A stretch of DNA of 59,686 nt, the filler included, from Sphacelaria rigidula (lineage: Eukaryota): NCBI GenBank assembly GCA_964200075.2. It is 8 parts of 8 records of this genome, joined end to end, with 100 filler letters (N's around TTAATTAATTAA, not from the genome) between each part and the next. Parts side by side here need not be neighbours in the genome. Positions count along the whole stretch, not along the records: positions 44,841 to 52,213 come from CAXNAA020015205.1; 7 more parts are not named here. One strand, 5' to 3'. Made by a program: the position numbers and the translations under genes. Shown here in pieces: positions 300 to 52,852 of this stretch. The notes under the pieces were generated by a model, which did not search any database, was not told the origin of the DNA, and was given only the letters and a program-made list of their open reading frames with translations. Every line of letters starts with the position of its first letter. Positions within the stretch are counted from its first letter, which is position 1.

Positions 300-494
300 A
301 GAGGTCGTGGCCACAGACGACGAAATAGGAAAGGGATAAGATACGTGAAATATTGGTGTAATGAACGCAAAAGAGGTGATGAGCGTCGATATGTTGAGTT
401 GTCTCGATTTGAAAAAGGGACAGTGCTCCGTCTCGAAAGGGATGTGTGGTCAATGGTCAAACGACTAAGGCAAGCAACACATGAGAACCCCCCG
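300..494 (+). mobile_element. 5'-truncated copy of the LINE 3' end (tail type A), ending in a C-run
   Basis: Homologous to 51450-51650 (tggccacaga..ggataagata..gtgctccgtctcgaaagggat..acgactaaggcaagcaa..gaacccccc). Confidence 0.85.
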
Positions 495-2765: not shown

Positions 2766-4238
2766 CCGGAAAAATTGAGAGTGCACCCCAGTCCACCTCC
2801 CAAAATTATGTGCAACCTGGGATAATGGTGAAAACACGTACGGTTATTCAGTGCTGCATGACCACCCCGACCGTGGTCATCTGGATCACACTTTCAATCG
2901 GGATCAGCACAACCAACTCCAAGTACAGCACAGTGCCTTGCAATACGGTAGCATAAATTTGTTTTCTTTTCATTACTCGACGCGTGGGAGACTTCCCTTC
3001 GTGTGCGTGACTTCCCAATGCCAGCTCGAAAACGAGAAAACTGTGCTCTGTGTTGGCTAGTTCAAATATCTGAGCTCAAAACTCTATGCTCGCCTGCTTC
3101 TCATCAATGTTTTTTCCACTCCGACAAATTATGGAGAGGAAGAGCCTTGAATGTGAAGACAACAACAACAACAATAACAACAACAAGAGGTGCAGCCTGG
3201 TGTACCCGGCCGCCCAGAGGACCCAAGGTAGAGAGCGTGGCGTGTATCGCAGCAGAAAATATCATGGTGACTGTATCATGCTCTTCTGTTTGTTGGTAGT
3301 ATTGAGTCTATCGGTACCGCAATGTGCGCCGTGCCGCCTGTACAATATCCTTCTGCTGTTTCGTGAAACATGGAGAACGTGTCACCCCGAGGGTGGGTCA
3401 TGGGTCCCTTCGGATTCTAGGGTGGCGAAACCCAAGTAAAAAGCTGAGGACAGCACAATGCTGTACCGTACAGCACGGCACATACCGCGCCGTCTTATCT
3501 CCGCCGCCCCGCTGCATTTCTTCCCTTCGTCTATGGGGATCACCGAAGAATCCGATTCCACCAAATATCCGGAGAGGGTGACCTCTTTCTGCCGCCAGGC
3601 TGAAAATTTAACCCTTCGACCACCAGGGTGAGCCACGTGGGTCTCGTGTTCATTTCATGAGAAAATTGTGCCGAAGTGACAAATAAACCACCCTCAGGGT
3701 GACACGTTCTCCATGCTTTTCCAAACAGTGGACGGATATCATAGCGACGGTACGGCGCGCGTAAAGGTGCCGATAGACTCAGCACTATCAAACAGCACAA
3801 TACAGTCGCCATGACGTTGTCTGCCGCGGTACACGCCACGCTCTCTACCGTCGGTTCTCTGTGTGGCTGGATACACGAAACGGCAGCTCTTTCTCTTGGC
3901 AACTTTTCGGAGTGGAATATAGAGTTTTGAGCTCAGATATTTGAAATAGGCAACATAGAGCACAATTTTCATATTCGAGCTGACAGTAGAAAGTCAAGCA
4001 CACAAAAGGAAGTGGGCCACGCGACGGTAGTGAGAGAGAAGGCAAAAACATGTTACTGTACTGCACCGTACTGTACTATACTCGGCATTGGTTGTGCTGA
4101 CCCCGGTTGGAAGTGTGATCCAGGTGACCACGGTCGGGTTTGTCGTGCGGCACTGATCGGCCGCATGTTCTTTTGCCATTATCCCAGGGCGAACATGGGT
4201 TTCGAAGGTGCACCCGGGTGCACATTCATTTTTTGCCC
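2766..4238. mobile_element. Foldback-type non-autonomous element with ~550-630 bp inverted arms
   Basis: 2766-3396 is the diverged reverse complement of 3688-4238; shared blocks include ctgggataatgg, ccgaccgtggtca.ctggatcacactt, atctgagctcaaaactct and gagagcgtggcgtgta. Confidence 0.85.
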
Positions 4239-6183
4239 AGATAAGCTGCTCTTGCGAAGATAGGTTTCAGACGTGGATAGTCCGGCTTTTGCTTCGAGTT
4301 GTGTGCACATGAAAGCAGCATCTGCACTTCAGTTCCACTTTGTCCCTTTTTGTCGTAGTTTCACTAGGCCAATCAATAATACTAGTTTTTCATGTTTTGA
4401 ACTTACCCCGTTTGTTTTACCTCTTCAGTTTTACGATTCTCATTTTTTTAGGGACCGTTTCCGTTTCGTTTACAGTACGTCGGGTACGTGTATCTTTTGA
4501 CCGCGGCTGGGCCCCCTCGGGGATGAGTTGATGTGTGACAGTTAATCCATCCGTTGGTTTGAGATGCACGGTAGCTCGGTGGATGATGATCCATCAGCGA
4601 GGTTGTGCTCAGGGAGGGTAGGCAGGCCACTGTTTCGAGTATGTGTTTAGGCCCAACGCATGCATCCCAAAACTCATGAGTCCATCATTTGATTCAGGAC
4701 GTGAATATGGATGCAAAAAACAGTGTACTGCTCGAAATGTAGACGAGTTGCATGGTATGGTCGAAGATGGGGAAATAGCCGTCCTCGGGTGGTCGTATCT
4801 ACCGTATATTGGGGTGATGAATGCCGTGTTGTTCTGTGTTTGGAAGAGCTCATGACAGATCCACGATCACGTAGGGCAGGGCCGCCTACCTTTCCGGAAG
4901 TTTTCATCCGAGATGAAGAACAAAAATGTCTTTCGAGTTGATATTCGGGGAAACTCGGACCCGAGGGCAATGACAAACCCTTACCGTGGAAGACCTCGGG
5001 GATAAGATCGTCTCATCGCTTTTTCCAAGGGGCGTATGAAGGATAATTTTCCCGGGGACGGAGAGGTATTGCTGCAACCGCTATGTCCTACCCTGTTGAT
5101 TCGTCTATGGGCAAGTACCACATTCCCGAAGTTCAGTGGATGGATTTGGCCGGGGCGGTGCATGATTCGGCAGCGGAGCGAGAAAGAACTCCAACCATCT
5201 ACGACGGAGGATATATATCTTGTCGAGGGGACTGCCATCCAGCGTTATGCTCTAACGCCGATGACCTTGAATACAATAGAGATAGCTTTACGGTAGTGAA
5301 CTCGAACTGTTCCAACTACAGTACTGGGCGCCTGTACTATTGTTTGTTCAGAAGGTTTTTTTCTCGCGACTACACTTCGAGAGAACTCTGAAGTGCTAGC
5401 GTCGGTAAATTCAGGTGAAATAAACAGATCGCCTTCCCCCTCCAGTGCCCAAGTTAGTGTTCGTTGGTGTTGTCTGGCGATACGAGTAGATACCCTGTTT
5501 ATCAGGAGGGTGTTATTGACCGTAAAACACAGTTATTCGGCTCTAGTGCAATGAGTGAGTAAAAAAATCATGTACATTTCTTCACAAATACGATCGGGAC
5601 AGGCTCGATCGACCGAAAATACCGAAGAGTCCGAATCTGGGTTTAAACGTGACAAGACACCCTATGACCGATCAGCCCGCAAGTCACTCAATATTGAGTA
5701 CAGATGTTTTTTATTTCTTGGAATGTGAAACAGATACAAGTATCTTCAGACCCTCAATGTGATGAGCGGTGGCAACCGAAAAAATCTAGCAAAATCGCCA
5801 ATTACGAAGAAATCACCAATATCAGTTCAGGCGCCGGGTACTGTATTCTTCAGGGACAACTATTGAGAAACCCTATTTCGTCGAGGACAACATCAACGCA
5901 CCCTCTCCTGGCAATGCTCCTGCACGGGGTGATATCAGTCGCTTTGGCGCGTAACGTACGGAGGATAGTGCGGTAGGAGACGGGAGATATGTCACGAGAA
6001 CGTCTACATCCTACCCTGATGATCTACGAGCCTTCTGCTGTCACCCAAAGGATTTAATGTTTTTACCCCCGCGCCCAAGGTAGCCTGGTCCGATGAAAAC
6101 CCGACGCGCTCCCTCCGTCCCGGCTTTGTAGGGGCGGACCCCCTATGGGGTTGGCATCGGTCCGCAATGACGCTGTTGTACAT

Positions 6184-6663
6184 GCCACTCACAGCGTAAG
6201 CTAGGCAATCAGGTTACCGTTTTGTTGTGCGTGCTTGCGTTTTTTTTGCGGTAACCATGATGGTGGTCGAGTCAGATCATATTGTGCGGGGGGGGAGAAC
6301 TTGAACTCCGCGCAAAGAGATGTTCGTACTACGTAGTGTTGAATATGGTGAGACACACATGAGGCAGTGCGTACGCCATGGGTGTCTCTCGAGGTGGCGA
6401 TACCAGAGAATGAAGTAACTCATTGGGGGCTGTCACCCAAATGTAAGATAATCAGTAGGCTTTGGGCCCAACAATCTTCGCAGGATGCAGCTCACCCTCC
6501 ATGCGTCTCGCCGAAAACACCACGGCACTTTGCGCTCGTTGATTGATTGTGAGCCTGGCCCGGCGAAAACTCGGCGTGCTCCGTCCCGGCTTCGTAGGGA
6601 TGCGAAGTCAACAGTCAAATTACTACGGCATGCAAGATCATGAGTACACCCTCCTTCCCCCCC
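6184..6663 (+). mobile_element. Non-coding SINE-like element with LINE-related tail (type B), ending in a C-run; may extend 5' to ~6000
   Basis: Colinear with the reverse complement of 21742-22197; fragment at 14949-15035; tail homologous to the LINE tail. Confidence 0.85.
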
Positions 6664-7249
6664 AAGCGCGGTGAGAGGATATTGCCTGACGTTTTAGCCA
6701 GTATTGTACGAACAACGATGCTCCTGGAGATGAGGACGGTACCATTACAACCGCTGTTTCGTACCCTTTCGATTTATGACATGACCCTTTCTCTCCAATC
6801 CCGGGGATGAAAAGCATCTCGTCCCCTGCCCGAATATACTTGAGGGCGTGACCTGTTCATGTGACCCCAAAACGACCTTGCAGATAGTTTTTCATCCTCC
6901 GAACTAATGGGTTTCAAGCCATCATTTGATACAATTGACGTGAAGAACAAAAACGAAAAACATCCGTTTGGGATCAACGTGCACAAGCCGCCCCGATGTG
7001 CACCAACTCAAACACTATAGCACAGCGAACTTTACTTCAGCAGCGTTCTCAAACGAGTGAACCGCTTGTGTCATACTCCAACATTTCAATGCACCATGTT
7101 CCGGAAGAAAATTACGTCGATTTCCAAGCGCCCAAGTTGTGACGAAAAAGCGCAGGGCTGATACTGTGAGCTTTTGACCGTGGGCGGCGTGAGCAGTAAA
7201 TCACATATGGGGTTCAAATGATTGCAGCATGGCCAACGTAATATTTTGG

Positions 7250-7374
7250 GCAATATACAAAAATGGATACACCCTGGTGCTTTTGGAACAAAAACGGGGA
7301 GCGCTTTTTTCGTCCTGGGGCGCGGCGCTGCACGCTGGCTGAACACCTCGAAACACGTTCCAGTACCTCAGCCC
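7250..7374 (+). mobile_element. Terminal fragment of the MITE family seen at 8738-9410
   Basis: atatacaaaa..tacaccctggtgct..cggcgctg..gctgaaca.ctcgaaa matches 8740-8863. Confidence 0.8.
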
Positions 7375-7474: not shown

Positions 7475-7477
7475 CCC

Positions 7478-7549
7478 ACCGTCTCGAAAGGGATGCGTGG
7501 TCAATGGTCAAATGACTAAGGCAAGCAACAAATGAGTACGCCCCCCCCC
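7478..7549 (+). mobile_element. LINE 3' tail (type A) ending in C9
   Basis: ccgtctcgaaagggatgcgtggtcaatggtcaaatgactaaggcaagcaacaaatgagtacg followed by C9. Confidence 0.9.
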
Positions 7550-8737
7550 TTTGTATATGAGAGTGTTTCCTGCGGCTTTTCTCAGGGTTGGACGATATTG
7601 TGTAACCCCTGCTTGTACGCGTGGCGAACCAGTTTATATGTGTCAATTCACCTGTCAGTCAAGCAACGGTGGTTACCCGAACCTGGATATCGCCGATGCT
7701 GTTTTTTATATACATGTATATATCGATGAAATTGTTTTGCGCATCGTATGTAAATACTGTTCGGAAGCGCTCGGCAGGTGAAAATCCATCTGTGAGCTCA
7801 TTTCCAGCATCCTACACGAACGAATACGTGGAGCAGGGTCAACTGTATGGTGGATGGTGTGCACCCAACAGCGATACTTACTGTATCTCGAAACGCAGGT
7901 GTGAATCTCTGGAGTAGTGCAGGGGGGAGTGAGTGCCACCTGACCGACGGGAACTCAATGAGGCAAACAAGCGGCGAAAAACGAGATGCCGGTTGCATCA
8001 GCACACCTCGTCGTCAAAAGTTTATATCGTTTCAGCGCGCTTTTCTCCCTCTCTGCAAGTATCGCGAGCGCACAAATCAAACGAATTTCCGCACAACTCG
8101 TCAAGGGCTGTCAAAAGTAATGCCATCGAAACAGCAGAATTTGAACCTTGAACGGATAGGCTTGCCAGAGGCTCGGGGCACCGTAGATCGCGCATGTGTC
8201 GTCGTGCCGGCTGTAGAAGATTTACTGCAGCAGCGTCTGCGCAAGCACTCGCGTTGTTTGTTTTTTTTGCTGCTGATGCGAACTCACGCGAACGAGCAAG
8301 CCGCGAGGCGAGAAGTGGACGTTGTGTCGATGACTCCACCAGTGTACACTGTACTGTATATATATACAGTGGAATAATGTATACAGTCAGCATACTGCAC
8401 TAGCTTCCCGTGTCTCGATCGACAGTCATGTGTTTCTTCCATCTCCGTGCTTCCTGTAGCGCTGTGCGCCCCTTGCTTTCCGTGTCCTGATACTTCTTTC
8501 ATGTGGCGCGGCGCTCTCATTGCGTCGGTCGCTCAAGGCCAAGACTGTCGAAGCGCGTAGGAGGCAGGGCTTACGAGAACCTATCGGCAATACCCCGACA
8601 CGTGCGTTCGCGTAAGGGGAATCATCAACGGGTATATATTTCCCCCCTCCAAAATCTCCATATTTCTCGGGGGGGAGGGAGTTCTCCTAGATATGAGACA
8701 GCAGATTTCCCAACCAGGTGAGGCGATAAATCAAGGG

Positions 8738-9410
8738 CAATATACAAAACAGGGTACACCCTGGTGCTCCTGGGACAAAAAAGGGTAAAGCATTTTTCGA
8801 TTTGGGGTGCGGCGCTGGACGCGGGCTGAACATCTCGAAAACACGTTCCAGCGCCTCAGCCCCACGCCCAAGGCGTCAGTCTGGGCACCATGTCCGACCA
8901 TGTTTGTTTTGTACACGTGGTGCTAGGCTTAACTACGGCGCGGAAAAGGGCAGCCTGTGAGAGTGCCCTTTTTTGTAAACAATTCAGGAGGGTACACTTT
9001 TGATGTCTGCTAAAAAATCATCTCTTACCCTTTCTTCTTAACGTGTGGACCCTTTCATGCTCAAGTGCATACCCTTCTTGATCCTTTCTTGTTTCAAGTG
9101 CATTTTTCTGTGATTCACACCCCACCAAAAAGGCCGAAACACAACGACCGAGAAGTTGTGGTCCCCAGCTGGTTGGCGCGCAGACCCGGAAGATACGACG
9201 ATGTATACAGAACGCAAACGCTTGTGTGCCAGAGCTCACAAAGATCCGACGATGATGCATGAAAAATCTTTTCGACACACACGCCCGAACGACAGTAAAC
9301 ATGTTTATTAAACCTTTGTGAGCCCCGGCAGCGCCGCACCCCAAACCGAAAACATGCGTCACGCTTTTTGTTCCAGGAGCACCAGGGTGTACCCTTTTTT
9401 GTATACATGT
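8738..9410. mobile_element. MITE-like element with ~80-bp terminal inverted repeats
   Basis: 8740-8818 (tatacaaaa.agggtacaccctggtgctcctgg..tttggggtgcggcgctg) recurs inverted at 9329-9408. Confidence 0.8.
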
Positions 9411-20324: not shown

Positions 20325-20365
20325 CAACCACAACCACAACCACAACCACAACCACAACCACAACC

Positions 20366-20438
<73 letters not shown>
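20325..20438 (+). repeat. Compound microsatellite (CAACCA)n(CAA)n
   Basis: Directly visible. Confidence 0.97.
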
Positions 20439-21741: not shown

Positions 21742-22197
21742 GGGGGGGGGCAGTCCTCATGATCTTGCATGCCGTAGTCGTAAGACCATTGACTTTGCAT
21801 CCCTACAAAGCTGGGATGGACCACGCCGGGTTTTGGCCGGACCAGGTTCGCAATCAATCACCAAGCGCGAAACGCGGTGGAGTGTTCGGCGAGTCGCATG
21901 GAGGTTGAGCTGCATCCTGCTAAGGTTGTTCGGCCCGACGCCTACTGATTATCCTGCATATGGATGACAGCCTAGAATGAGCTGCTTTGTTGTCTGGTAT
22001 CGCCACTTCCAGAGACAGCCACGGGTTACACACTGCCTCATGGTTGTCTCATCATTTGAACACTACGTAGCACGATCATCGTCTTTGTGCGGAGTTCCGG
22101 TTCTCCTTTAAATTGACCACCATCATGGTTACCGCAAAAAAAACGCAAACGAAGAAAGAAACGGTAACCGGGCTGCCTAACTTACGCAGTGAGTGGC
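21742..22197 (-). mobile_element. Type-B SINE-like element, second long copy, ending in a C-run
   Basis: Reverse complement is colinear with 6184-6663. Confidence 0.88.
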
Positions 22198-22199
22198 GT

Positions 22200-22321
22200 G
22201 GGAGGGGGGGGAGCGTGCTCATTTGTTGCTTGCCTTAGTCGTTCAACCATTGATTGCATGGGGGGGGGAGGGGTGGGGGGGTGTACTCGTGATCATGCAT
22301 GCCGTAGTCGTAAGACGATGG
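22200..22321 (-). mobile_element. Two stacked 3' tails (type A 22200-22253, type B 22260-22321), each ending in a C-run
   Basis: Minus strand reads ..gcatgatcacgagtaca-C-run, then aatggttgaacgactaaggcaagcaacaaatgagcacgct-C-run. Confidence 0.88.
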
Positions 22322-23405: not shown

Positions 23406-23653
23406 TGTGACGCCAGCAGGTTGCTAGTACTGCACCGTCTAATGCTGTTGAGGGACTCCCCAGTTCCACTGGCCTCAAGGTCTCAGTTGTCAGCCTTCAC
23501 AACACCTTTGTTAGTTCTGGACTAAAAAGCTGCAACCCCTTACCGTCAGGTCTGGGCTACACAGCAAGGGTCATCATCCACAGGATGCCCTTGTCCCCCG
23601 ATCATCATCCAGGATCCACCATGTATTCAACGTGATGGCGTGACTTCGTCACA
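23406..23653 (-). repeat. 3' LTR
   Basis: Direct repeat of 27295-27542, about 19 differences by manual count. Confidence 0.95.
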
Positions 23654-23749
23654 GCACCCCCAAAGCGCGTTGGACGAGAATCGAGCAACAAGCTTGACAC
23701 TCAGAAAACAAACGCCGAAGCGATTGAGCAAGTCACAACTGAATCCCAC

Positions 23750-26700
23750 TATCGGCGTACGATCATAACGACGTCGATACACTGTATTGAGCGCGCATTG
23801 CACCGGCGGCAACACGCCCACCCACTCGGAAACCGCTCTACGCTGCTCGAGAAGAACAGAGCGAAGAGCACAAACTACTTCCCTGACCATGCGTTCGCAC
23901 GTACCGTTAGACCACGGAGAATACGCTACCGCAAACTGGTGATCAACGCGCAAATTCTCTCGCAATCAGGCCAAGATCGCATTCTTGAGATGCGTGTCGG
24001 TGTCACTCACCCACACACGGGGCACCCCCAAAGTTTTACACCAATTCAGTATAGACGCAGAAGTCGATTCAACAGTGCACACTGCTACTGGTTCCAGAGC
24101 CACAAAGTTGTTCAAATTATCCATGATTACCAAAAGATATCGAAATCCTGCATCCTCCGACAAACCGTGGAAAGCGAGCGGGCCACTCTGGCCCACGTAC
24201 AAGAAGTCAAAATGAACGACTTTATTCGGCGTGATCCCTTGGACCGTTTCGCCGAGCGGACGGGGAAGAGCATCGCCCGCCCTCGAGTCAGCACAGTGAA
24301 GACACTGGCGGACAAAATTGCGCTCATTAGTTTCTATCCCCTGCCAGACACAAAACTCTTGCAAGCGCACGAGCGTCGCAGCCACACCACGATACCCAGC
24401 GTCGCGCATGTGCGCGCAAATCATCAGACGTACCTGCAACTGCTTGTCAGAACTCGGCATCCATAAATCGTTTCGGCCACGCACATGCACACGAAACAGT
24501 ATTTTATTATCCAAGATAGCAGTACCAACGTCCGACTCGAAAGATTGCACACCCTCATCTTCGACCCCAAGGTCTTTTCGTTGCGCTTGGCGGACAACAG
24601 ATGTGGACGGCATCGAGTCATCAGGTTCACACGGCTCATACACAGCCACAATGCGCGCAGGCAAACTGGAAATATTTACCCAGCGCGACAGCAAGTCACC
24701 CTACGCGTTACGTTCACCCGAAATATGACAAATCGTGTACCGGTACTGGCCTAATACAACTTTCCCCCCCTCCAATCGCTGTGCCAACACCTTCGACACA
24801 GATGTCACGCATGCCTCCGGGTTGAAAATGTACGCTAGATTTCGGTGATCCGTGAAAATGTGCATGCCATTCCACAATAGATGCTCGAGACGACGAAAAG
24901 TGCCCACGACAGCAAAATCTTCCTTGTCAACGGTTGCCCAACGCATCTGTGAACCCTTGAAATTACCAGTAAGAAAAGCCAGCGGTTCATGCGTCATGTC
25001 TTCAACTGGCAACCGTTGTTGCGTTTCAGCATCAGGCACCTGCGTCACAAAACTACCCCAATGGCACTCAAATGCATCCGGAAACTTTGACACCTGACAA
25101 TTAGGACGAGGATGGAGCAGTGTCACGGCATGAGCCACCAGATCCTTCGCTGCCGCCCACGCCTGCAGCCTGCCCTCCGTCCACGATGCAGCCTTCTTCG
25201 GGAACCCCATATCTGGAGTGGGCCACCCTGCCTGCAAATTTCGTAACACCAACTCGAGCGCCAAAAGAGCCGCTATGCACAATGCCAACCAACTCGACTT
25301 CACTGGATCGTACCGCCGCGGCTTCGTCTTCACCGCACACGTCCCAGGTTGTGGCTGAACACGCATGGGCTCCACGCGCGCAGGGGGATCACCCCGCAGC
25401 GCACGACGAAACGCGTTGAATCGGCAATGCAATATGCCGCGCAGGCGCTCCGCTTTTGAGACGCTGAGGCTGTTCGCCCCAGCATCCGTCACGCTCTCCT
25501 CCAGCGCGACTTTCCGAGCGGACTCCTCTTCCGCCTTATCAATAAATATCTCCGGGCCGCGCTCTACCAAGCGTTCCACCGCCGCATCCCGCTCCTCAGC
25601 CACCTGCCTTCCATCCTCCTGAAAAGCATTTACCGATAAGCTCACGTGACAGCTGCCCAAAACGGCGGGCGTCTCCAAGCATGGGCCAGGCGGAGACACC
25701 CACGTCTTCATGGAGTCCCACAACCGCCGAGCGTTGACTCCAGTATCCTGAACCATAGGCAACACCATAAGAATAACGTCATCCGACCCCGGCATGATCG
25801 CAAACGAGATCGGAGGCAACTGTGCCGGTCCCCGGGAAGCCATCAAAGTCAGCTGCAGCGGAACCGTACGCTCTGTGACGTAAAGATGCTGACCCGACGC
25901 GGTGACGGCCTGCCGCGCCCCGAGCGAAAATGGAGTGCGCAGCGCCACACCCGGGAGAAGACGCTCCAACATCTCTACGATTTGTACCGACAGACTCACA
26001 CGACCCGCCCAGTGGGCGCGGGAACCCCACTTAGCATCTACCGCAATGGCTCCCCGCGCCCGGTGATTCGGGAGATATGACTCTGCAGCCATATATTTGC
26101 CTTGATACTCGACCAGCACCTGCTCCGTCGACTGATTGTTCGTGATCCCCACTTGGCGCCACGACTGCGCGTGCGGCGCAGGCATAGACGCCCCCGCTGG
26201 GGTCACCGGCAGAACCAAATTGCAGCGGCACTCCGGCCGACGCAGCAGCGGATACTAATTTCAGCTGAAATCCGGCCGGCTCAGCAGCAGGCATCTCGCC
26301 TTACTCTGCTGCCGGCGGCGCCAGCATTGAGCCCGATACTAGAGTGGTCGGTCCGACCTGCACCGTCCGTTACGGAGCAGCAGCCCTTGCGGCTGAGTTG
26401 GACCCAGAACCGGACCCCTGCTGACGCCGCTGCCCCTGCTGCTGCTGCTGCTGCTGTTGGGAACTCGACTGTGCACCTCCACCGCTGGAGGATCCTCCGC
26501 CGCCGCCACCACGATCACCTCGTATTTTGCCCTTGTGCTGACGATGCTGATGGCGTGCGGCATGAGACTGCCCAGACTTTCCACCGGAATACGTTAGGCA
26601 ATCGCGCGCGTAATGGCCGACCTGGCCACAACAGTGGCAAGTGCCCGCCGCATGCCTAGCATGCTTTCTGATCGCCGAAACCGATTGCGGCGGTGTTATT

Positions 26701-27294: not shown

Positions 27295-27542
27295 TGTGAC
27301 GCCAACAGGTTGCTGGTACTGCACCGTCTAATGCTGTTGAGGGACTCCCCAGTTCCACTGGCCTCAAGGTCTCAGTTGTCAGCCTTCACAACACCATTGT
27401 TATTTCCGGAGTAAACAGCTGCAGCCCCGTACCGTCAGGTCTGGGCTACACAGCAAGGGTCATCATCCACAGGATGCCCTCGTCCCTTGGTCATCATCCG
27501 GGATCCACTATATACTCAACGTGACGGCGTGATTTCGTCACA
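27295..27542 (-). repeat. 5' LTR
   Basis: Direct repeat of 23406-23653. Confidence 0.95.
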
Positions 27543-27555
27543 GGTCTTTTTTCGA

Positions 27556-28329: not shown

Positions 28330-29243
28330 TAAAACGTAGCCCAACGATCGTTAAGTACGGAAGCCCTGCAGCATCCGTCCGCTGTTGTTTGAAAGGACAC
28401 CGAGAACATGTCACACCGAGGGTGGGCCCTCTGTTTCTTCGGCACAATTTTCACTTCAAAAATGCCCACCCTGGTGGTCAAATAAGGGTTCAATTTTACA
28501 GCTGGCGGCAGGGAGGGATCACGCTTCCCGGGGCTTTGGTGGAATCTGATCCTTCAGCAATTCTGATCAACAAAGGGATGAACACAGCGGGATGACGGAG
28601 AATGAGACGACTGTACTGTACTGTTGTGTTTTTTGGGTTTTCGTGTACATACGGTACAGTACTACGTTGTCATGTGTACCGTCCTGTCTGTAGACCATAA
28701 CTCACTTTGCTGAAGAGATGGCGCGGTGGACATCATGGCGTTAACGATAGACCTAGCGCAACTGACAGACAGTAGAATATAATGTAGTCGCCGTGATGCT
28801 GTCTATTCCAGTACACGCCACTCTCTTTACCTTGGGATTTCTCTGCTTCTCTGGGTACACAAAGCAGCACCTTTTTTCCCTTCATAGTCTGTCGGTGTGC
28901 ACCATACATGGATGTAGGATGGAGATGAGTGAGCAGAGAATTTCGAGTTTCGAATTAACACAGAGCACTTTTTCGTTTCGAGCTGGCAGTTGGAAGTCCA
29001 TCACACTCGACCATGCGACGAGTAGTGAGAGATGAGAGAGAGTGCGACATCATGTTCCTGTTGTACTACTACTGTACTCTGCGTTGATTGTGCTGCCTCG
29101 GATTGAAATAGTTTAACCCAAGCTGCACCACGGTCAGGGTCGTGGTCATGCGGCGCTGACTAACCCATACGTGTTTTTTCCATTATCCCAGGGTGCACAT
29201 GAAGGTCGATAGTGCACCGGGGTGCACATTTAATTTTTCCGTG
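28330..29243. mobile_element. Second, deleted copy of the foldback family
   Basis: 28385-28610 matches the reverse complement of 3480-3720; 28965-29240 matches 3965-4235. Confidence 0.75.
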
Positions 29244-29794
29244 TTAACTAGCCTCCGTCAATCTGCCGCCTCCTTGATAATCAAAAATGACATCCTAGGC
29301 TATGTTCCCAATGGTAGTTGCGAGGCTTATGTCACCTGATTACGAATCTTCTACGTGCACTACTTCGAATTAGATATTTAGATCTCGTCAAAGTGAATGT
29401 AGTACCGATTGTTCGAATACATCGACCAAACTCTTTCGACAGCCATCCAATAGGTGAAATCGTGAAACCGCCATGTCATCACGAAGCTACTCCGATTATG
29501 ATATACAATGAGAGGGTACCCTACCGGTCGGGTACCTTTCCCAAGAATTGGATGCTCACCATCGTCAATGTTTCCTGAATAATAAAAAGCGTTTGCGCTC
29601 CGGACCCCAAAGATTGGATTTTCACTGGTTGCGAATATTTTTCGACCCGTTGTTGGGCTATGTATGACTGCTGCCGAGATAGCACCCCCCCGAACCGGCC
29701 AAAAAAGTGCACGGAGGCGATGATCATAAATGCCGTGAGAGCTGGCTTCGTGCTGCAAGACGCGACTCATTTGGGCGTTGTAGCTGATTTCGGA

Positions 29795-29894: not shown

Positions 29895-29968
29895 CTCCGT
29901 CCCGGCTTTGTAGGGATGCGAGGTCAATGGTCTTACGACTATGGCATGCATGACCATGAGTACACCCT
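29895..29968 (+). mobile_element. Type-B 3' tail
   Basis: ctccgtcccggctttgtagggatgcgaggtcaatggtcttacgactatggcatgcatgaccatgagtacaccc. Confidence 0.9.
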
Positions 29969-36961: not shown

Positions 36962-37267
36962 ATCAAGTCATCCTACGATAGGAGGGAGGGTATTTTGGGT
37001 CACTTCTTGCACAAACTTCGAAGGCATATCGCCGCTGAAATCAGCAACGGGTGCTCGAACGAGCTTGTTATAGATACATAACGCTCATTCACACCGATTG
37101 ACACCGCTTTGAACCAAATACAAGCGCATCGCGAGTGTTGCAGGTCATCTGACACACTTATCAGCCTTTTTTTCATGCAATCAAATACCCCCCCCCTCCC
37201 TATGTGCTCCGTCTCGCCTGGAGTGCACGTGCAACTGGAAAACACTTAAGGCACGGAACAATTGGGT

Positions 37268-37367: not shown

Positions 37368-38453
37368 GAGAACGCCCCCTCCCCCCCCCCGGTTGGTAAG
37401 GGGGCCCCGCCGGGGGCAAGAAAATTCCGCCGGTTGACTCCACATGTACTCAAAATCGCGGTAATTTCTCGTCGACTAGCGCCAGCAATTCTAGCAGGTA
37501 ATTGTGGCAGAAAACATATATATATATATATATGTATGGGGGAAAAAGAAATTTCACTGAGCTTTGCGACATGAATTGGAAAACGGAGCGGTGAGACAGT
37601 AGTGCAGCATACATAGCGTTCCGTGTGTACCACCCAAGCGCCAGGAACTACTATATATATATTAGTAGCACGACAACCTGGTAAAGTTACTGAGTGTGAC
37701 TTCATCAGTCAGGAAAAATTAGCAGAAATCTCGACTCTTCCTCATGCTTCGGTATCACATTCACCAGCCACCACTGAACGCTTAGAACGCTTGATGCTGA
37801 CAATATAAAGCAAAGCACACACAACAACGCTACGAAGTATGACACATATGTCGGGTGGAATAACTGGTTCAATTAGTTGCAAAACCGATCAGCTAACCAG
37901 TTGCACCAGTTAACTGTAACTGGTCAGTTAAACTGGCAGCCAGTTCACAACTCTCGAAGAAACAGTGTGAATAATAACGGGCCTACTTGCGTTTCAGCCA
38001 TGCACGGGGTACATGCATGAGTGAAAACCGTGCCCTTGCCTTCCTCCCATTCACCCCTTGGGTGCCGACGCGTGGACAAGTTCTAACGAGCAAATGCAGG
38101 AGTTCACACGGACATTTTGATGCCTTCGTCACTTTTACGGTGTGGTCGTGCTGGCGACCGTTTGAAACATCCGCTCATGACGCTCCTCCCTCTCTCCAGA
38201 GGTGGGAACGAAGGGCTGCTGTGGAAAGCTCCCGTGACCTACGAGCACGTGTCACTGTCATTGATTTTGACTCGATCGAATGCCGTACAATACCTGTGCC
38301 TGCCACAACGACCGTCCCTTGAAGCGGGAACTCTAGAGGGTCAAGATTTTGCCCTCATGGGTGACCATGAGCACACTGCCAGCTTGCCTTTCTTGTCCAT
38401 GTTGTCCGTGTGTTATTTTGCCCGCCTTGCTTTGTTTCAACGCACTACGCCAG

Positions 38454-38605
38454 GTGCAGTACCCCGGTGCCGAGCGCGTGATGATGTCAGACCTGCGTAA
38501 CCTCAGGGCCTTGGCATGGTTCTTGCAGAAATTCGAGCTCAACTTCGATATTTTGTCAAGTCTCAGGGAGCTATCCAAGCAAATCAAGGGGGAGTTCGAC
38601 TTCAG
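38454..38605 (+). CDS. ABC1/UbiB atypical protein kinase, exon (gene incomplete at both contig ends)
   Basis: VQYPG..SDLRNL..EFDF; AG/GT; phase-compatible with the next exon. Confidence 0.92.
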
Positions 38606-39107
38606 GTGCAGAGCCTGTTTGTTTCCCTTCTACCGTACGTGCCCTGTAATATCGTGTGACCCATCTGATCGGGGGAGACAGCGTCACTCTTCCCTCCCTC
38701 CTTCTCCTCGTCTTTGTTCGAAACGAAGTCATGAACATGTCTTGCGTCCAGCCCCAATTCGTGGGTTGTCTTGCAGCTGAAGATTGCCAGGCGTTTTCTG
38801 GCACGGATTGGGAGGATGCTGATGCATAAATACCATGTCGCAATGTTGTGCACGGACGCCCGATGCGTAGTTTACGCGTTCCGCGGTCTACGTCTGGCAC
38901 ACATTTGGCCGCACAAAAGCAAACCTGGTGACGTCGAATCTCTACCTGCAACGCACTTATTATAGTCGCTCATATTGGCGGTGTTATCCCCACGTACTGG
39001 TGATTCTGCTAACCCAGCCATACATACCAACACCAATAACTTGTGCTACGACACGGCGTAACACTCGCACATCCACGCTGTGGTCCTGTCTTTTGTGGTT
39101 TGTGTAG

Positions 39108-44840: not shown

Positions 44841-44911
44841 TTTGTAGGGATGCGAGGTCAATGGTCTTATGACTATGGCATGCATGATCATGAGTACACC
44901 CCCGCCCCCCC
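44841..44911 (+). mobile_element. Type-B 3' tail ending in a C-run
   Basis: tttgtagggatgcgaggtcaatggtcttatgactatggcatgcatgatcatgagtacacccccgcccccc. Confidence 0.9.
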
Positions 44912-45415: not shown

Positions 45416-45839
45416 CTTAAAGGCGGGAATCGTTTTCGTTGTAACGGAAAACCAGGAGAGAAAAAAACGGGGAAATCTGTCTTGTCTTGAATATTTTTAC
45501 CGCGTCGACCTAGACCCGAATGTTTTGTAGCGATCCTGGGGAAAAGACAAGTAAGGATCGTTCGGATGTGTACCGAATACGGCATGCTGGTCCATCTCCA
45601 TGGGTTCCCCTGATCTGATGTCGTGGTTGGTTTTGCTATTTCGTCACCGCTAAGTATTGTTGTTTCACACATAGACAGTGGTTTGATGCAACAAAATGTC
45701 CATTTATGTGCGCGTCGTGTGCGCAGGAAAGCATTGTGCGGATGAATCAGCGAACATAATGACTCTGCAAGCAAGGTCAGGATGGCTGGAACGGCTTCAT
45801 CGTCACTTCGTGTCAGTTCTTGCTGTGTATCATGACACA

Positions 45840-45896
45840 GGGGAGTGTACTCATGATCATGCATGCCATAGTCATATGACCGTTGACCTCGCATCT
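45840..45896 (-). mobile_element. Type-B 3' tail
   Basis: Minus strand gatgcgaggtcaacggtcatatgactatggcatgcatgatcatgagtacactcccc. Confidence 0.85.
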
Positions 45897-45950
45897 CTTT
45901 CCCTTCTTCTCTTTCTCTACATTTGTACCTTTCCTTTTCCTCTTTTTTAA

Positions 45951-46548
45951 ACCTACTATAACACAGCCCGGATATGGACATGAAATACAGAAGTTAACCC
46001 TCCTTTTTGTTTAACCTACCATAACACAGTCCGGACATAGACATGGAATACAGAAGCTAACCCTTCTTTTTCTTTGACCTACCATAACACAGTCCGGACA
46101 TAGACATGGAGTAAAGAAGCTAACCCTTCTTTTTCTTTGACCTACCATAACACAGTCCGGACATAGACATGCAATAAAACAGCTAACCCTCCTTTTTATT
46201 TAACCTAGCATATCACGGCCTGGACATAGACATAAAATAGAAAAGCTGACCCTCCTTTTTGTTGAACCTACCATAACACAGCCCGGACATAGACATGAAA
46301 TAGAAAAGCTGACCCTCCTTTTCGTTTAACCTACCATAACACAGCCCGGACATCGACATGCAATAGAGAAGCTAACCCTGCTTTTTATGTAACCTACGAT
46401 AACACAGCCCAGATATAGACATGGAATAGAGAAGCTAACCCTCCTTGAATTTAACGTACCATAATGCAGCCCGGACATAGATATGAAATAGAGAAGCTGA
46501 CCCTCCCTTTTTTTTTAACCCACCAAAACACAGCCCAAACATGAACGT
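45951..46548 (+). repeat. Minisatellite, ~10 copies of a 62-63 bp unit
   Basis: Unit aacctaccataacacagyccggacatagacatg.aata.agaagctaaccct.ctttt repeated head to tail. Confidence 0.95.
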
Positions 46549-46899
46549 GAAATCGCGAAACATAAGAGATCTACTCTCCCATATCAAGTCGGAAAACAAC
46601 CGAGATTCTCCCCCCAATATCATAACAAACGCAAGACAATAATATAAGCCACAACCTAGACATGTAAGTAAAAGCGTGAAGCTTGGCCACCGCACATGCA
46701 AATCAAAAATACAAAATACAGAACAAGAACGGGTAGGATAGGGTCATCACCTCCTCCATGTCAAACGCCCATGGAGGTTGGGGTCTCGTGGTGAGATCCC
46801 CGTAAAACCTCACCGGTTTCCATTGGGCGGTGGAAGTCTGGTCAGACATTTCCAGAAATGTCCGACATTAAGTGCAAACGGCGTCAAATGAAGGGAAGG

Positions 46900-49800
46900 G
46901 GTGGATAATGCATGACATAAATGTCAAGACCTACTGCACTCATGAAATAAACACCTTACACATGACCGACCACATGACCTACGAGACGGAGCACCAAGCG
47001 GTACGTAGACTTCTTGAGATCTTGAAGGATAGAAGCTGGTACAAAGTGTGGGGGCATCGTTGGCCAAGCTATCGGCAGCGAAGGTCTACTCGGAAGCATC
47101 AATGGAGTAGTGACCCATAGTGAATCGTACACGGAGTGGGAAAAGTGATGTACGGAACATCCCGATGTGAGGAAGACCTTGTGTCATGCAAGCCGTCCTT
47201 GAACCTTACACGGTAAACATAAATGACCTCCCTCAAGGAAAGTAGCCAGTACAGCAGCGGGGCAAGAAGATAGAAGAAACGATCGTGGGACGCCTGGATG
47301 GTTCAGATGGTTTACCATGAAAATCGCCTGGCACAAACGAGGGGTACTTGTGTCAGAGGTGTTGAACTTGACTTCAGGCCACCGGCCCCTGTTGGAGGCA
47401 TTATTTAATGTCGGTGAGCCAGCAAAAGAACTGGAAGACACCAGACCCCCAACGAGTGCTAGGATTGCGATGTCCCAGTACGCTGACTACATCCCACCAC
47501 AACAATCAAAATGAACAAGCTGGAGATACTCTAAAGAGATCGAGAGAGAGAGAGACGGTAAGGAAGGGCGGATGGAAAAGTAAAGAGTGGTCGGGTGACG
47601 TACTAGTAGTGCTGGTATTCGGAGTACGTAGCGACAGGATGATGATAGAGTTCAAAAGGAAATACGATGGAGTTGGACTATACTGTTTGGCAATAGGAAT
47701 AGTAGAAAAGGAGGGGAGGGAGAACACTTTCGGGTCACGCTTTAATAGAGCACGAGCAAGTAGTGGGGAAGGACAGATACAATCAAGGTGTCAACATGGG
47801 TTAGAAGGGTAGGAAAGAGAGTATGCATTGCTAATGAAACAGCAAACGTGAGGCGTAGTCCACGGGTAAGCGGAGAAAAGGAGAAGCAGGAACAAGCAAT
47901 TGCCCGGGAGGGGAAGGGGAAGGGAAATAGCGGCCCGAAGCAAATAGACGAAGAACAAACCGGAAACGGGAATAACAATCAAGCAAGGGAAAATTGAAGT
48001 AAAAACGACGGAGAGAGAACAGTATACAAAAGAAGAGTAGATGTTAATTCGAAACGGAAGTAGAAAATAAGATCGCGGAACATGTGTGGATTTGCCACAG
48101 ACGAGCGCAAAAGAGTACAAATAGCTGAACAACCAAGTAACCACGGCCTAGATACAGTGGGTATACAAGGGTCATGGGAGAAAAGGGGGCGGAAATAGGA
48201 TGCAAAGTTGAAGAGTACGTATGGATAGGGCAAAAGCGGACGGGACAGAAGCTCAAGGTCAGGGGAGCGGGGGAAGTAGGATTCTCAGTCAAGGAATGTC
48301 TGTGTGACATCATAGAAGTGATCGAAGACACAAAATTCGACGAGAGCATATGAACAAGATCACAAGGAGAGTGGGGAACGAAATACTTCTCGTAGGGAAC
48401 ACCTATATGCCCCCAGCACCGATGAGCACGGTGAAAGATATATAGCGGAGGATAGGAGAGATAGTAGCAGATGTACAGAAGTATAAAAGGCAATGAGAAG
48501 TGATGTCAGCGAGAGACTTTAATGCAAGGGTTGGAAAAGCGGGTCGCCCAGGTGATATCATGGGACAATACGGGAAAGATAAGAAGAACACCAATGGGAT
48601 CGAAATGCTGAAGTCCTGGAGAACAAGGAGATAGAGACGCTGAACGGGAGATCACAAAAACCAGAGGCGCGATGGACACAGACTATGAGATGCAAAAACG
48701 AGAGAGAATTCTCCGTTCTTGACAATATAGTGGTAGAGCATGGGAATAGCAAAGGCATGGCAGCACATGTACGCGCAGAGCACGTGGGAACAACTGATCA
48801 CTGCCAAACATGGACAGAAAGCTAACAGAAAAAAGCTAACAGAAATAGCCGAGGTAGAAATTTTTACAAGTAGAGAGTCGATAACCTAAAAATGTAAGAA
48901 AATTAGCAATAGTTCCAAGAAGAGATGACCAAGGGTGCAGTGAAATTTTCCGAGCTGTTGGAACGCACAGGTACACTTGATACCGAAATGGAAAGGGATC
49001 AGGCAGGAGCGAAGATTATAGAAGGATGTGAGCAGTTGGTCAAGAACGCAGCGAGTAAAGTCATCGAGAACAAACTGATCGTATTCAACGGAGCAATAAA
49101 ATGGTGGGATGAGGGAGTAAAAGAGGCTACAAAGGTAGGGAGAGAAGCCCACGCAAGATGCATATCGAGTAAAACCATGGTAGGATGGGAGGAGTATACT
49201 GAAGCTCTAAAGGAAGTAACAAAGATTATGAAGAAGAAAAAGAAGGGAGTTTGGGACGATGTAGTGAATAAAACAAATGAATATTTCGATGGCGGGATGA
49301 AAAGAAGGTGAGTAGGGATGAAAGGGATGATGGGAAACAAGGCAGGAACGATAGACAAGGGGATATTCACACTACGGGCACAGAACGACAAAATGGTCAG
49401 TACTTCGACGGGAGAGAGAGAAGTGCTAGTCAAGCACTATCGTATACTAGGAACACCAAAAACTAACACGAAATTCGACACGGAATTCGAGAAAGAAATC
49501 TACGTGTGGGCAGGGGCGAATGTAGAGGCGTCAAAACGGGATGATGGTGGCTTCAAAGAATTGCAGAGAGACTTTACCAGAGATGAAGTAAAGGAGTGTG
49601 TAGCTTGTCTCAAAACAGAAAAGCAGCAGGGGTGGACAGAATAGTGAATCAACTTCTCAAGCGCGGGAGAGAGGGAATGCTGATCATGATGGTTATGCTG
49701 TATATATGGGGAAACGAGTATACACCCAAGAGGTGAAGAAGAGGAGTAGTCGTCAACCTTTTAAAAAAAGGAGACGAGGCTGGCGCAGGGAATGATAGAG

Positions 49801-51655
49801 GACTAAAGCTACTGAGCAACGTAGGGAAAACATCCTGTAAGATTCTAAATGATAGAGTGGGAACGATGATAGAAAATGAAGAACATATCAGTGAGGGACA
49901 AGCAGGTTATAGACCAAAACGTAGTTGCGTAGACCATGTGTACACACCAAGTAAGATTATTCAAGGTAGGAAAGACACCGCGCTGACAACGTATTGTTTC
50001 TTTTTGAGCGTACAAAAGGCCTATGGCACAGTATGAAGAAATGGGCTGTGGAAGAATATGTGGGAAACTGGGATCAGAGGAATGATCTGGAGAATTGCAA
50101 AGAAGATGAGATAACGTGCAAAAAGCTTTTTGATGCTAGACGGGGGAATATCGAAATATGTTGATATTTTACAAGGACTTGCACAAGGATGTACGTTACC
50201 ACCCACTTTATTCAAGGTATTTATCGATGACCTGATAATAGCAATACAAGCAGCAAAGCAAGGAGTCAAGGTGGGAAAAGATACGGTATCGGGATTAAGG
50301 TTCGCGGATGATTTTGCGGGGGTATTAGAAACACCAGAAATAATACGGAAGTAAGTAGAGAAGACACTAGAATACACTAGGACATGGAGAGTGGCAGCAA
50401 ACGCAAAAAAATGCGCTGTACTCGTATCTAACGAAGATAAGAAGAATCCGGGAGAGTTCAAATGGAAGTGGGGAGAAGGGGAACTGCCGATCGTAGACCA
50501 GTAGGCATACCTTGGCGTAGAGATACAAAAACACTGTTCTTGGGGATGTACACATAAACAAAGTAATATAGAAGGCTGAGACACAGATAGGCAGGATGAA
50601 CGTGATCCCCAGAGACTCACCTAGATACTAGGATTGAGAGATGTATCCTGATGAACGTGATCGTACCAAAGCTGGAATATGCAGGAGAAGTATGAGAGGG
50701 GAACGTGAAGATGGTGAAGAAGCTGGAAACAGTACAGGAGGCAGCAGCCGAGAACACACTTGGATGCTCGAAAACAACGAGAAATGTAGCATTGAGAGCA
50801 GAGTTGGTGGTGTATAGTCACTTAAAACAAACAGATATGGGAAAATTGAGATGGTAATATAGCGTTAAAATTCTGCAGATGAAGAGATTGCCAGCTGTGT
50901 TTGTAGGACTACATGGAAGAAGGAAACGAAAGGGCAGACTGGAATAAGGCGGGATAGAAAAGTCGAGAAAGTATGGAAGGAGATTGGAGGGAACCAGGAC
51001 GAAATAGTGTCCACAGATGAAGGCGCGGGGTACAAGACCAAAGTAAGAGACATGATAGAATTAAGGGAAAAATAAACGCTCAGACGCAAAGTAGACGAGG
51101 AAGAACACCTGGAGATATACGGGGGTTGAGAAAGGGGATCGGGATGAAAGCATATTTGCATGGCCCAATGAATGCGGCTAACATTTTGAAACTGCGATTT
51201 CGGGTGGGGGACCTGGACCTGCCAGAGAGGAGAAATAGGCACGCTAGTAGTCGAGAGGAGGAGAAAGTAGGTGGGCAGAACTGCCTCTGTGGCAAAGCAA
51301 TAGAGAGCAGAAGTCATATAGTGTCAGAATGTGAACTATACAAGGAGGAACGGGACGCGCTAGAGCGGCAAATGCGGGACGTAAACGAACGTGGCATGAA
51401 CTCGTTTGGTGCATTAGACAGTAGAGAGAAAACGAAGGCCATACCAGGAGGTAGATGGTGGCCACAGAAGGCGGAACAGAACGGGGATAAGATATGTAAA
51501 AGGTTTTGTGTAAGGTGTTGAAGAAGTGGAATGGGCACCAAGATGTTGGAGCTGTCTCTCTCAGGAGTAAAAACGGTGCTCCGTCTCGAAAGGGATACGT
51601 GGTCAAGGATCAAACGACTAAGGCAAGCAATAAACAAGAACCCGCCCCCTCTCCT
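46900..51655 (+). mobile_element. Decayed non-LTR retrotransposon (APE endonuclease, RT, C-terminal CCHC); 5' boundary uncertain
   Basis: APE motifs (GIQGSW, DFNARVG, TDH); RT motifs (QAGYRPKRSCVDH, QKAYGTV, GLAQGCTLPPTLF, FADD, YLG); CLCGKAIESRSHIVSEC; many stops; lies antisense in an apparent intron. Confidence 0.93.
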
Positions 51656-51922: not shown

Positions 51923-52213
51923 CTTGGGGATTTGTTTCCGTTGCGGTTGTGCGCATGCCCGCGTGCGTGTTTTCGTTTTTGTATCATGGATGAAGAGCAG
52001 GAGGAAGAAACGATAGAGGGGGAAGAGGGAAGGGGGAAGGGGGAAGGGGTGGTGGGGTGGGGGTGTACTCGTGATCCTGAATGGTTGCCGCCGCGCCCCG
52101 GTGGTGTAATCGTCCGACTATCGCCATTAGGGTGGAGAGAACGAGGGTTTGATTGCCGATGCGTTGTTTTTTTTCTTCGTAATGCCTGATTTCCACCGTG
52201 GAAAGCGTGAGAA

Positions 52214-52313: not shown

Positions 52314-52852
52314 TGTTCGGGCCACCCCCCCTCCGGACGACACCCCGGTCCCACCCCGCGCAGAAGGGGGCGCCCACCGGGGGGGGGGGGGGGGGGGGGG
52401 GCGTATTTCGCTCCCAAAAACACGTTTTTCCAGCGGTAGCGAAATCACCAGCTAGACCAAAATGAAAACTGGACCCTGGACAACTGTTCACCAAAACGAT
52501 CGGGGCTTGTTCGATTGGACCAACAGATGAAAAAAAGAGCCAGAGCTTACAAAGGGCTGTGCACTTCCAGGACCCCCGACGACCGATTAGCCCGTACGTT
52601 GTTCAAAAGTGCTGATAAGAATGACCTCCTTTATTTCCCTTCGAAATACTCATGAAATCTCTCCATACCCAGGTTTTGGGGAGTTGAGTTATAACGATGT
52701 TCAAAAAGTATCCATCGACTTATAAGCAAGCCACAACATTCCACGCTCATTGTGAAGTACGAAGAACGTGTTCGACATCGCTCGGGTTCTGCGATCCCCC
52801 CCCTACACAACATAACATCCTGGGCAATATATGGTCAACAGTTGCGATGGAA

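Follow-up and report, generated by a model that had tools for sequence, protein, structure and literature searches.

C-ended LINEs and tail-sharing non-autonomous partners in the brown alga Sphacelaria rigidula

Tails, LINE body and short partners in the window

The stretch of Sphacelaria rigidula DNA analysed here (the window) is 59,686 bases long and consists of eight pieces of 7373-7374 nt each, separated by N/TTAATTAATTAA spacers; the equal piece lengths (e.g. on either side of 37267/37368) suggest that the pieces are separate contigs. Within it lie a long interspersed nuclear element (LINE) with an apurinic/apyrimidinic endonuclease-like (APE) region and a reverse transcriptase (RT), and short non-coding elements that share the 3' tail of this LINE. 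We refer to tails of the LINE kind as type A and to those of the main non-coding element as type B (Table 1). An earlier note, made from the same DNA, had reported eleven such tails on five contigs, and we found all eleven in place, on five pieces. In every one of the 11 aligned tails a GAGNAC (GAGTAC-like) motif is followed by a C-rich run, and in none of them is there an A tail, so that the alignment bears out the earlier description of these ends, including the CCC at 29895.

The runs that follow the motif in the 11 tails are C6; G+C9; CCGC5; GCT+C8TC3; AC3TC2TTC7; TG+C9; AC7AC4TC9; ACCC; AC5GC7; ACTC4; and a C tract of over 40 nt interrupted by A or TT. The shortest run, CCC, is found at 29895 only, and the longest is the interrupted C tract at 52 kb. 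Identity between tails is 85-92% among type A copies and up to 97% among type B copies, and the tail of the APE-RT LINE aligns with that of the non-coding element, as had been proposed, at 79-82% over 56-63 nt. An nhmmer profile re-finds 10 of the 11 tails at E values of 1e-12 to 7e-23 and the 52-kb fragment at 2e-4, a recovery that is partly circular because the profile was built from the same 11 tails; it gives no further match in the window below E 0.6. Beyond the eleven copies, the window holds a tail at 37204-37267, a tail end at 37368-37390 and a third non-autonomous form at 69-493.

Table 1. Features of the C-ended LINE family in the window
Feature	Position	Strand	Basis
Third non-autonomous form: C15 (54-68), head 69 to about 290, LINE 3' part 293-487, C6 (488-493)	54-493	+	alignment, contig depth
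Type A tail with C6, 3' end of element 69-493	424-493	+	92% to 7479-7544; 73% over 207 nt to LINE end 51442-51646; nhmmer E 5.5e-21
B-like copy, 5'-truncated, variant tail ending GTTGTAC	6082-6180	+	6082-6133 vs 6552-6599 at 79%
Full-length type B element, about 483 nt, ending GAGTAC + ACCCTCCTTCCCCCCC	6181-6663	+	79.7% over 468 nt to 22200-21753
Type B tail of full copy 6181-6663	6576-6663	+	alignment
Solo type A tail, CCC before it at piece start, ending GAGTACG + C9	7475-7549	+	cut by piece start; E 2.5e-22
Full-length type B element ending C9; 5' end abuts C-run of upstream A fragment	21742-22200	-	alignment
Type B tail of full copy 22200-21742	21826-21742	-	alignment
Type A tail fragment, 5'-truncated, with C8TCCC, between two C-runs	about 22201-22259	-	E 1.2e-12
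Type B tail with C7AC4TC9, cut by piece end, first of three head-to-tail elements	22321-22260	-	E 1.9e-12
C7, then head of element 69-493 again, cut by piece end	29685-29794	+	89% over 110 nt to 62-171
Type B tail, cut by piece start, ending GAGTACACCC (shortest C-run)	29895-29968	+	E 7e-23
Diverged tail variant (37204-37267) starting GTGCTCCGTCTCG, behind C9TCCC, cut by piece end	37188-37267	+	by eye; no nhmmer match
Tail end GAGAAC + GC5TC10 at piece start	37368-37390	+	sequence inspection
Type B tail with C5GC7, cut by piece start	44841-44911	+	E 8e-23
Type B tail, 5'-truncated, with CTCCCC; no C-run on 5' side	45835-45898	-	E 1.8e-19
Degenerate APE/RT LINE with type A tail	46560-51655, 5' limit uncertain	+	Pfam, tblastn, purine skew
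LINE: APE-like region	48004-48371	+	tblastn to residues 40-157 of P0014
LINE: linker	48709-49632	+	tblastn
LINE: RT	49617-50543	+	Pfam RVT_1 E 5e-19, frame 3
LINE: C-terminal region with Cys/His motif	50618-51473	+	tblastn
LINE: 3' untranslated region and tail	51522-51642	+	last open reading frame stops at 51521, ~120 nt ahead of GAGAAC-type end
Type A tail closing the LINE	51577-51655	+	tail alignment
LINE: closing C-rich run	51643-51655	+	tail alignment
Diverged B-tail fragment (about 52121-52046), then long interrupted C-rich tract	52000-52121	-	E 1.9e-4

The copy at 46.6-51.65 kb is, to judge from its sequence, a dead APE/RT LINE. Searches by tblastn with LINE proteins from Ectocarpus and from ENA recover colinear pieces that are spread over three frames, and the copy therefore has frameshifts and stops. 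Endonuclease and RT follow one another in one reading direction: the APE-like alignment to P0014 overlaps the Exo_endo_phos match of that protein (residues 57-138), and one of the Ectocarpus LINE proteins with which the pieces are colinear has Exo_endo_phos plus RVT_1. Purine skew is strong across about 46-52 kb and suggests a LINE body of at least about 5.1 kb. The RT is most like proteins of Ectocarpus (41-58% identity) and unnamed proteins from ENA (up to 71%), and among solved RTs human L1 ORF2p (E about 1e-27) and R2 proteins (E about 1e-17) come nearest; a protein atlas search with the LINE RT returned generic RT clusters only and no clade name. Directly upstream of the LINE body, at 45938-46559, lies a tandem array of about ten 63-nt units (80-85% identical) that adjoins an inverted truncated B tail; the array is a candidate LINE 5' untranslated region or a separate satellite.

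Type B has its last ~60-70 nt (~80% identity) in common with the LINE and nothing else of the LINE body in the window. The B-like copy at 6082-6180 abuts the B copy at 6181 in tandem with no C between them, and joints from 6133 to 6622, 6625 or 6627 are present in other copies represented among the Logan contigs described below. The element at 69-493 is built differently, the last ~200 nt of the LINE, A tail included, being fused to a head of unknown origin; a motif from this head recurs only at 29692, where none is expected by chance. Type B has no Pfam, Rfam or tRNA match. ARAGORN finds no tRNA gene in the whole window and Rfam gives no match at E≤1 on piece 1, which carries both a full B copy and element 69-493, so that neither search detects a head of the RNA polymerase III type (tRNA-, 5S- or 7SL-like) in the DNA it covered. 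For this reason the partners are LINE-dependent non-autonomous elements and not short interspersed nuclear elements (SINEs) in the strict sense. The tail variants at 6134-6180 and 37204-37267 keep the first ~13-45 nt and a GTAC/GAGAAC-type end and differ in the middle; such sequences may hint at extra LINE or partner subfamilies.

Recurrence outside the window and likeness to Ectocarpus families

The tails are the most abundant sequence on piece 1. We placed on this piece, at 80% likeness, Logan contigs of four runs (X1, X4, X6 and X7) from three studies; none of the runs is recorded as RNA, an RNA origin of X6 and X7 is no more than a guess, and the contigs of these two extend past the C-runs. 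Summed depth in X1, which is not a copy number any more than a contig count is, reaches 3.9e6 in bin 247-492 (A tail) and 3.4e3 in bin 493-738, against about 72 in single-copy bins, and 4.5e6 in bin 6397-6642 (B tail) against 70 in bin 6889-7134. Bin 1-246, which holds most of the head of element 69-493, stands at about 5.6e5 against the same single-copy level of about 72. Depth thus falls sharply at the C-run, and no other part is repeated nearly as often as the tail.

Contigs that leave the reference at the tail borders do so through C. Loose ends behind 493 number 786, 681, 94 and 95 contigs in X1, X4, X6 and X7, and those behind 485 number 438, 385, 46 and 53; all have a poly-C consensus and then no common sequence (agreement 0.44-0.57). 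On the other side of the tail, the consensus is again a C-run where contigs break off before 424 (X1, 408 contigs; X4, 393; X7, 63) or before 426 (X6, 39; X7, 37), and at 423 it is the LINE 3' untranslated region in X4 and C-rich, not assigned, in X1 and X6. Joints that lead from 493 back to 424 occur in 13, 13, 2 and 3 contigs of X1, X4, X6 and X7, and joints from the B tail (6647/6649) to 424 in 9+5 contigs of X1, 6+4 of X4 and none of X6 or X7. These joints indicate head-to-tail and tail-to-tail arrays.

Metagenome contigs scanned with a degenerate tail core yielded 101 loci, two of them genuine LINE 3' ends whose alignment takes in the end of the open reading frame, the 3' untranslated region and the tail. 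One (L045) ends in GAGTACG + C10 and the other (L016) in GAGTACG + C8, with unrelated flanks beyond; the remaining 99 loci are unrelated sequence with no C-run. The earlier view of the element ends therefore holds outside the window as well: copies do not run past the C-run into common sequence, either in the contigs of the four runs or at the two metagenome ends, and A-rich tails are absent from these and from the tails of the window.

What did not survive is the claim that the system is novel and has no described case. RTEX-1a_Ec32 of Ectocarpus is listed as 'single EN-RT ORF; (C)n 3'', with a length of 5867 bp and a 'C-rich' target-site duplication (TSD), and RTEX-2_Ec32 (5582 bp) as '(C)n termini/TSD' (PMC12477816, Genome Biol 2025, Supplementary Material 3). 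In the same source RTEX-N1_Ec32, about 600 bp long and present in >6000 copies, is described as non-autonomous, its 3' end conserved with the RTE-X LINEs RTEX-1 and RTEX-2 ('60 bp 3' end 83% RTEX-1_Ec32/RTEX-2_Ec32'); for RTEX-N1a (607 bp) the head is given as unknown, the TSD as C-rich and the element as one that 'can be present in tandem', and RTEX-N2_Ec32 (188 bp) has a 'similar 3' tail' and a C-rich TSD (PMC12477816). The remaining manually curated Ectocarpus LINE and Penelope-like element families in these entries end in (CAA)n, (CA)n or (A)n (PMC12477816).

As far as these entries describe them, the RTEX families match those of the window feature for feature, and a system with this property is accordingly already catalogued. 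In both, an endonuclease is followed by an RT in a LINE of comparable length (5.5-5.9 kb vs about 5.1 kb or more) that ends in (C)n; C-rich sequence flanks the copies, listed as the TSD for RTEX and present in the window as C-runs on the 5' side of most elements; the partners are short and non-coding, with an unknown head and a ~60 nt 3' end at about 80-83% identity; elements stand in tandem, head to tail; copy number is very high; and the hosts are brown algae. The differences lie in the host, in an RT identity to Ectocarpus proteins of only 41-58%, and in the partner, which is about 483 nt long in the window as against the 607 and 188 bp listed for RTEX-N1 and RTEX-N2. With a probability of about 80%, we take the window family to be APE-type LINEs of the RTEX-1/2_Ec32 kind together with at least two non-autonomous partners that use the ~60-70 nt 3' tail of the LINE. 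The C-ended LINE/partner system is thus known from Ectocarpus, and what is new here is its occurrence in a second brown alga, Sphacelaria rigidula. No other C-ended LINE is described in the literature searched, outside which most subscription journals and Repbase Reports fall.

In stringent LINE/SINE pairs, such as UnaL2/UnaSINE1 of the eel and others built on CR1/L2-type LINEs, the two partners have a common 3' tail that ends in a short repeat. The window family is like these pairs in that the partner carries the LINE 3' tail, in its non-poly(A) simple-repeat end and in a variable repeat length that fits slippage; it is unlike them in that the repeat is a C homopolymer, the stems predicted for the tail show no compensatory change and the ARAGORN (window) and Rfam (piece 1) searches give the partners no polymerase III-type head. 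Waldo, Kibi and Koshi are APE LINEs of other clades that target microsatellites. With these the window family shares the presence of the same simple repeat on both flanks and a head-to-tail build-up within it, whereas its repeat is (C)n:(G)n and its nicking specificity is putative. Closer by host are RTE-1/2_Ec32 and CRE-1_Ec32 of Ectocarpus, which like the window LINE have non-A 3' repeats, (CAA)n or (CA)n, but differ from it in the repeat itself and have no C-rich TSD noted in their entries (PMC12477816). From these ends, non-poly(A) termini appear to be usual in brown-algal LINEs, so far as the entries go.

Probable insertion into C:G tracts, and C-tailing as an alternative

The earlier note had left two options for the origin of the C-runs, targeting of poly(dG:dC) tracts or a templated C tail, and the first is now the better supported. 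At 7 of the 10 visible 5' junctions in the window there is a C-run on the 5' side of the element: C15 before element 69-493, C7 before the head at 29692, C9TCCC before 37204, CCC at 7475, CCCCCGCGCCC near the 5' end of the truncated copy at 6082, and the upstream runs at 22204-22215 and 22260-22281. The limits of a TSD cannot be drawn inside a homopolymer, and C-runs stand before 424 in the contigs as they do at these seven junctions. On the minus strand at 22321-21742, three elements follow one another head to tail: a B tail is succeeded by a truncated A tail that begins in its C-run, and the C-run of this A tail is in turn where a full B element begins. The 59 kb contain three C or G homopolymers at least 15 nt long (C15, C27 and G23), where by our estimate essentially none is expected from composition. 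Together, the 5' C-runs, the head-to-tail nesting, the loose ends and joints of the contigs and the long homopolymers lead us to prefer, over simple C-tailing, an insertion into C:G tracts that duplicates C-rich sequence; the clues are indirect, and we put the odds for this somewhat above even.

The C27 tract, which is followed by C7 (39495-39529, plus strand), and the G23 tract (52379-52401, minus strand) have no recognised A or B tail adjoining them. Either may be a landing tract, empty or eroded, or else mark where an unrecognised tail variant ends.

A mechanism for such insertion can be proposed. The LINE protein would recognise the common tail of its own or of a partner RNA ('stringent' recognition), an RNA that would end in oligo(C). 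The endonuclease would nick the G-strand within a (C)n:(G)n tract, and the freed oligo(dG) would pair with the oligo(C) and prime reverse transcription, slippage during priming giving rise to variable run lengths. A second nick inside the same tract would produce a C-rich target duplication. Each insertion would deposit new C tracts that might serve as landing pads, which would account for the arrays and for the solo tails between C-runs.

A more specific version of this proposal draws on the 5' edge of the tail. The C-run starts at the same point, 424-426, which is the 5' edge of the common tail, in about 400 contigs per DNA run and in about 40-60 in X6 and X7. This suggests that the solo tail unit of ~70 nt (5' edge 424-429) is discrete and is not a random 5' truncation, and the piece at 7475 starts alike. 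A discrete edge in turn suggests a defined stop, a cleavage or a template switch at the border of the recognised RNA. Solo ~70-nt tails bounded by C-runs receive no mention in the supplementary entries of the Ectocarpus annotation (PMC12477816). Tentatively, and at rather less than even odds, the family may be a homopolymer-specific retrotransposon for which (C)n:(G)n is both landing site and primer and for which the last ~70 nt plus oligo(C) form the minimal unit of retroposition; this would account for the fixed start of the C-run at 424-426 and for the tail-tail joints.

Several observations weigh against the family assignment and the insertion mechanism proposed above. Three of the ten 5' junctions (6181, 45898 and about 52121) have no C-run, and with only CCC at 29895 and no C at the tandem junction 6180/6181 a long C-run can be dispensed with. 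Empty alleles were not observed, and X4, from a second study, carries both insertions of piece 1. For the shared tail, RNAalifold predicts 14 pairs with no compensatory change, and single-sequence folds have z-scores of -0.94 to +1.58, no better than shuffles; the predicted drawing has two stems, the first a short hairpin whose loop is GAAA in A and longer in B, with no covariation. The sole LINE body in the window is dead by its frameshifts and stops, and a single intact open reading frame is not demonstrable. The abundance data are contig counts and summed depths in place of copy numbers. Membership in RTE-X, finally, would follow from matching features and from Ectocarpus protein matches that carry no family name, RTEX having been compared by description.

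The junctions that lack a C-run and the bare CCC at 29895 also speak for C-tailing, in which the RT or the RNA supplies the oligo(C), templated with slippage or untemplated at initiation, and the sites are otherwise ordinary. The broad range of run length, from 3 to more than 20, and the unrelated 3' flanks beyond the runs fit the same explanation, which would treat 5' C-runs as landings in older tails or as extra nucleotides at the 5' junction. Element 69-493 is hard to reconcile with it, as C15 stands at its 5' side and the 53 nt of contig ahead of that run contain no older tail that can be recognised; the same holds for the head at 29685, which lies behind C7 with no tail end in the preceding 30 nt. 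A C-run lies immediately 5' of the tail in about 400 contigs per DNA run, and the Ectocarpus curators independently scored the TSD as C-rich in their entries (PMC12477816). We consider C-tailing unlikely, although of the alternatives it is the one with the most weight. An origin of the runs in sequencing or assembly (two-colour poly-G, contig-end collapse), which would make them no part of the elements, is by comparison extremely improbable. Six of the 16 piece ends do fall inside tails or C-runs, showing that assembly breaks there, but most runs are internal and have unique flanks on both sides (488-493, 6652-6663, 7541-7549, 21742-21750); they are always C on the sense strand of the element, whatever its orientation in the contig, and they are found again in the four sequencing runs (three studies), in both of the unrelated metagenome contigs and among the curated Ectocarpus entries (PMC12477816).

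The partnership itself can also be questioned. If type B were an internally deleted LINE copy or a satellite spread by recombination, it would not be mobilised in trans and its tail likeness would reflect shared descent. The lack of a polymerase III-type head in the ARAGORN (window) and Rfam (piece 1) searches would agree with this, as would the tandem junctions among B copies, and the published notes on RTEX-N1 mention weak homology to the RTEX-2 5' end and that it 'may not be true SINE' (PMC12477816). Type B copies are nonetheless scattered across contigs and face either way, they include 5'-truncated ones and differ in their flanks, they match the LINE only in the last ~60-70 nt (~80%), and their Ectocarpus counterpart is listed with >6000 dispersed copies (PMC12477816). 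We judge descent without mobilisation in trans to be improbable and retain partners that depend on the LINE through its tail.

Remaining content of the window and significance of the family

Repeats are abundant in the window, and only ten frames of at least 180 aa are open. Pfam recognises RVT_1 in the LINE, Gypsy-type RNase H and integrase fragments and, weakly, ABC1; in the 71 of 175 open reading frames (≥90 aa) searched with Pfam, the host signal amounts to the one weak ABC1 match, the rest being Gypsy-type pol fragments. The sole clear host-gene fragment is an ABC1/aarF-type kinase exon (38337-38777, plus strand), which shares 96% identity with a protein of Sphacelaria rigidula, 88% with one of Laminaria digitata and 86% with those of Ectocarpus, and so points to a brown-algal host other than Ectocarpus.

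The pol fragments belong to a Gypsy-type long terminal repeat (LTR) retrotransposon at 23969-26254 on the minus strand (RT_RNaseH E 3e-10, Integrase_H2C2 E 6e-7). They are flanked by direct repeats of 249 nt, 23406-23654 and 27295-27543, which are 92% identical and may be parts of LTRs. Other high-copy repeats, unrelated to the tails, lie at 5316-5775 and at 7248-7374, 8735-8862 and 9328-9405, with summed contig depth up to 4e5 (bin 5413-5658). A long, imperfect inverted repeat (75-78%) pairs 2770-3413 with 4234-3671 and has a third related copy on another piece (28373-29241); it may be a DNA transposon or a foldback element. Self matches with a 3-nt offset mark a trinucleotide microsatellite at 20360-20438, and a short related stretch lies at 3159-3186.

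The piece ends that fall inside tails or their C-runs are those at 7475, 22321, 29895, 37267, 37368 and 44841, and from this share of contig ends we take the repeat family to be a main cause of assembly breaks in the genome. Short-read assemblies break at C-run tails, and masking with the published library is advised. A C-ended LINE, probably of RTE-X type, and its partners dominate the repeats of a second brown alga, and this occurrence implies that the system is probably old and widespread in the Phaeophyceae. In the literature searched, a LINE that ends in, and apparently lands in, C:G homopolymers figures only as a supplementary-table entry, with its mechanism unstudied. The C-ended LINE would offer a simple system for how annealing at the 3' end sets the target choice of LINEs.

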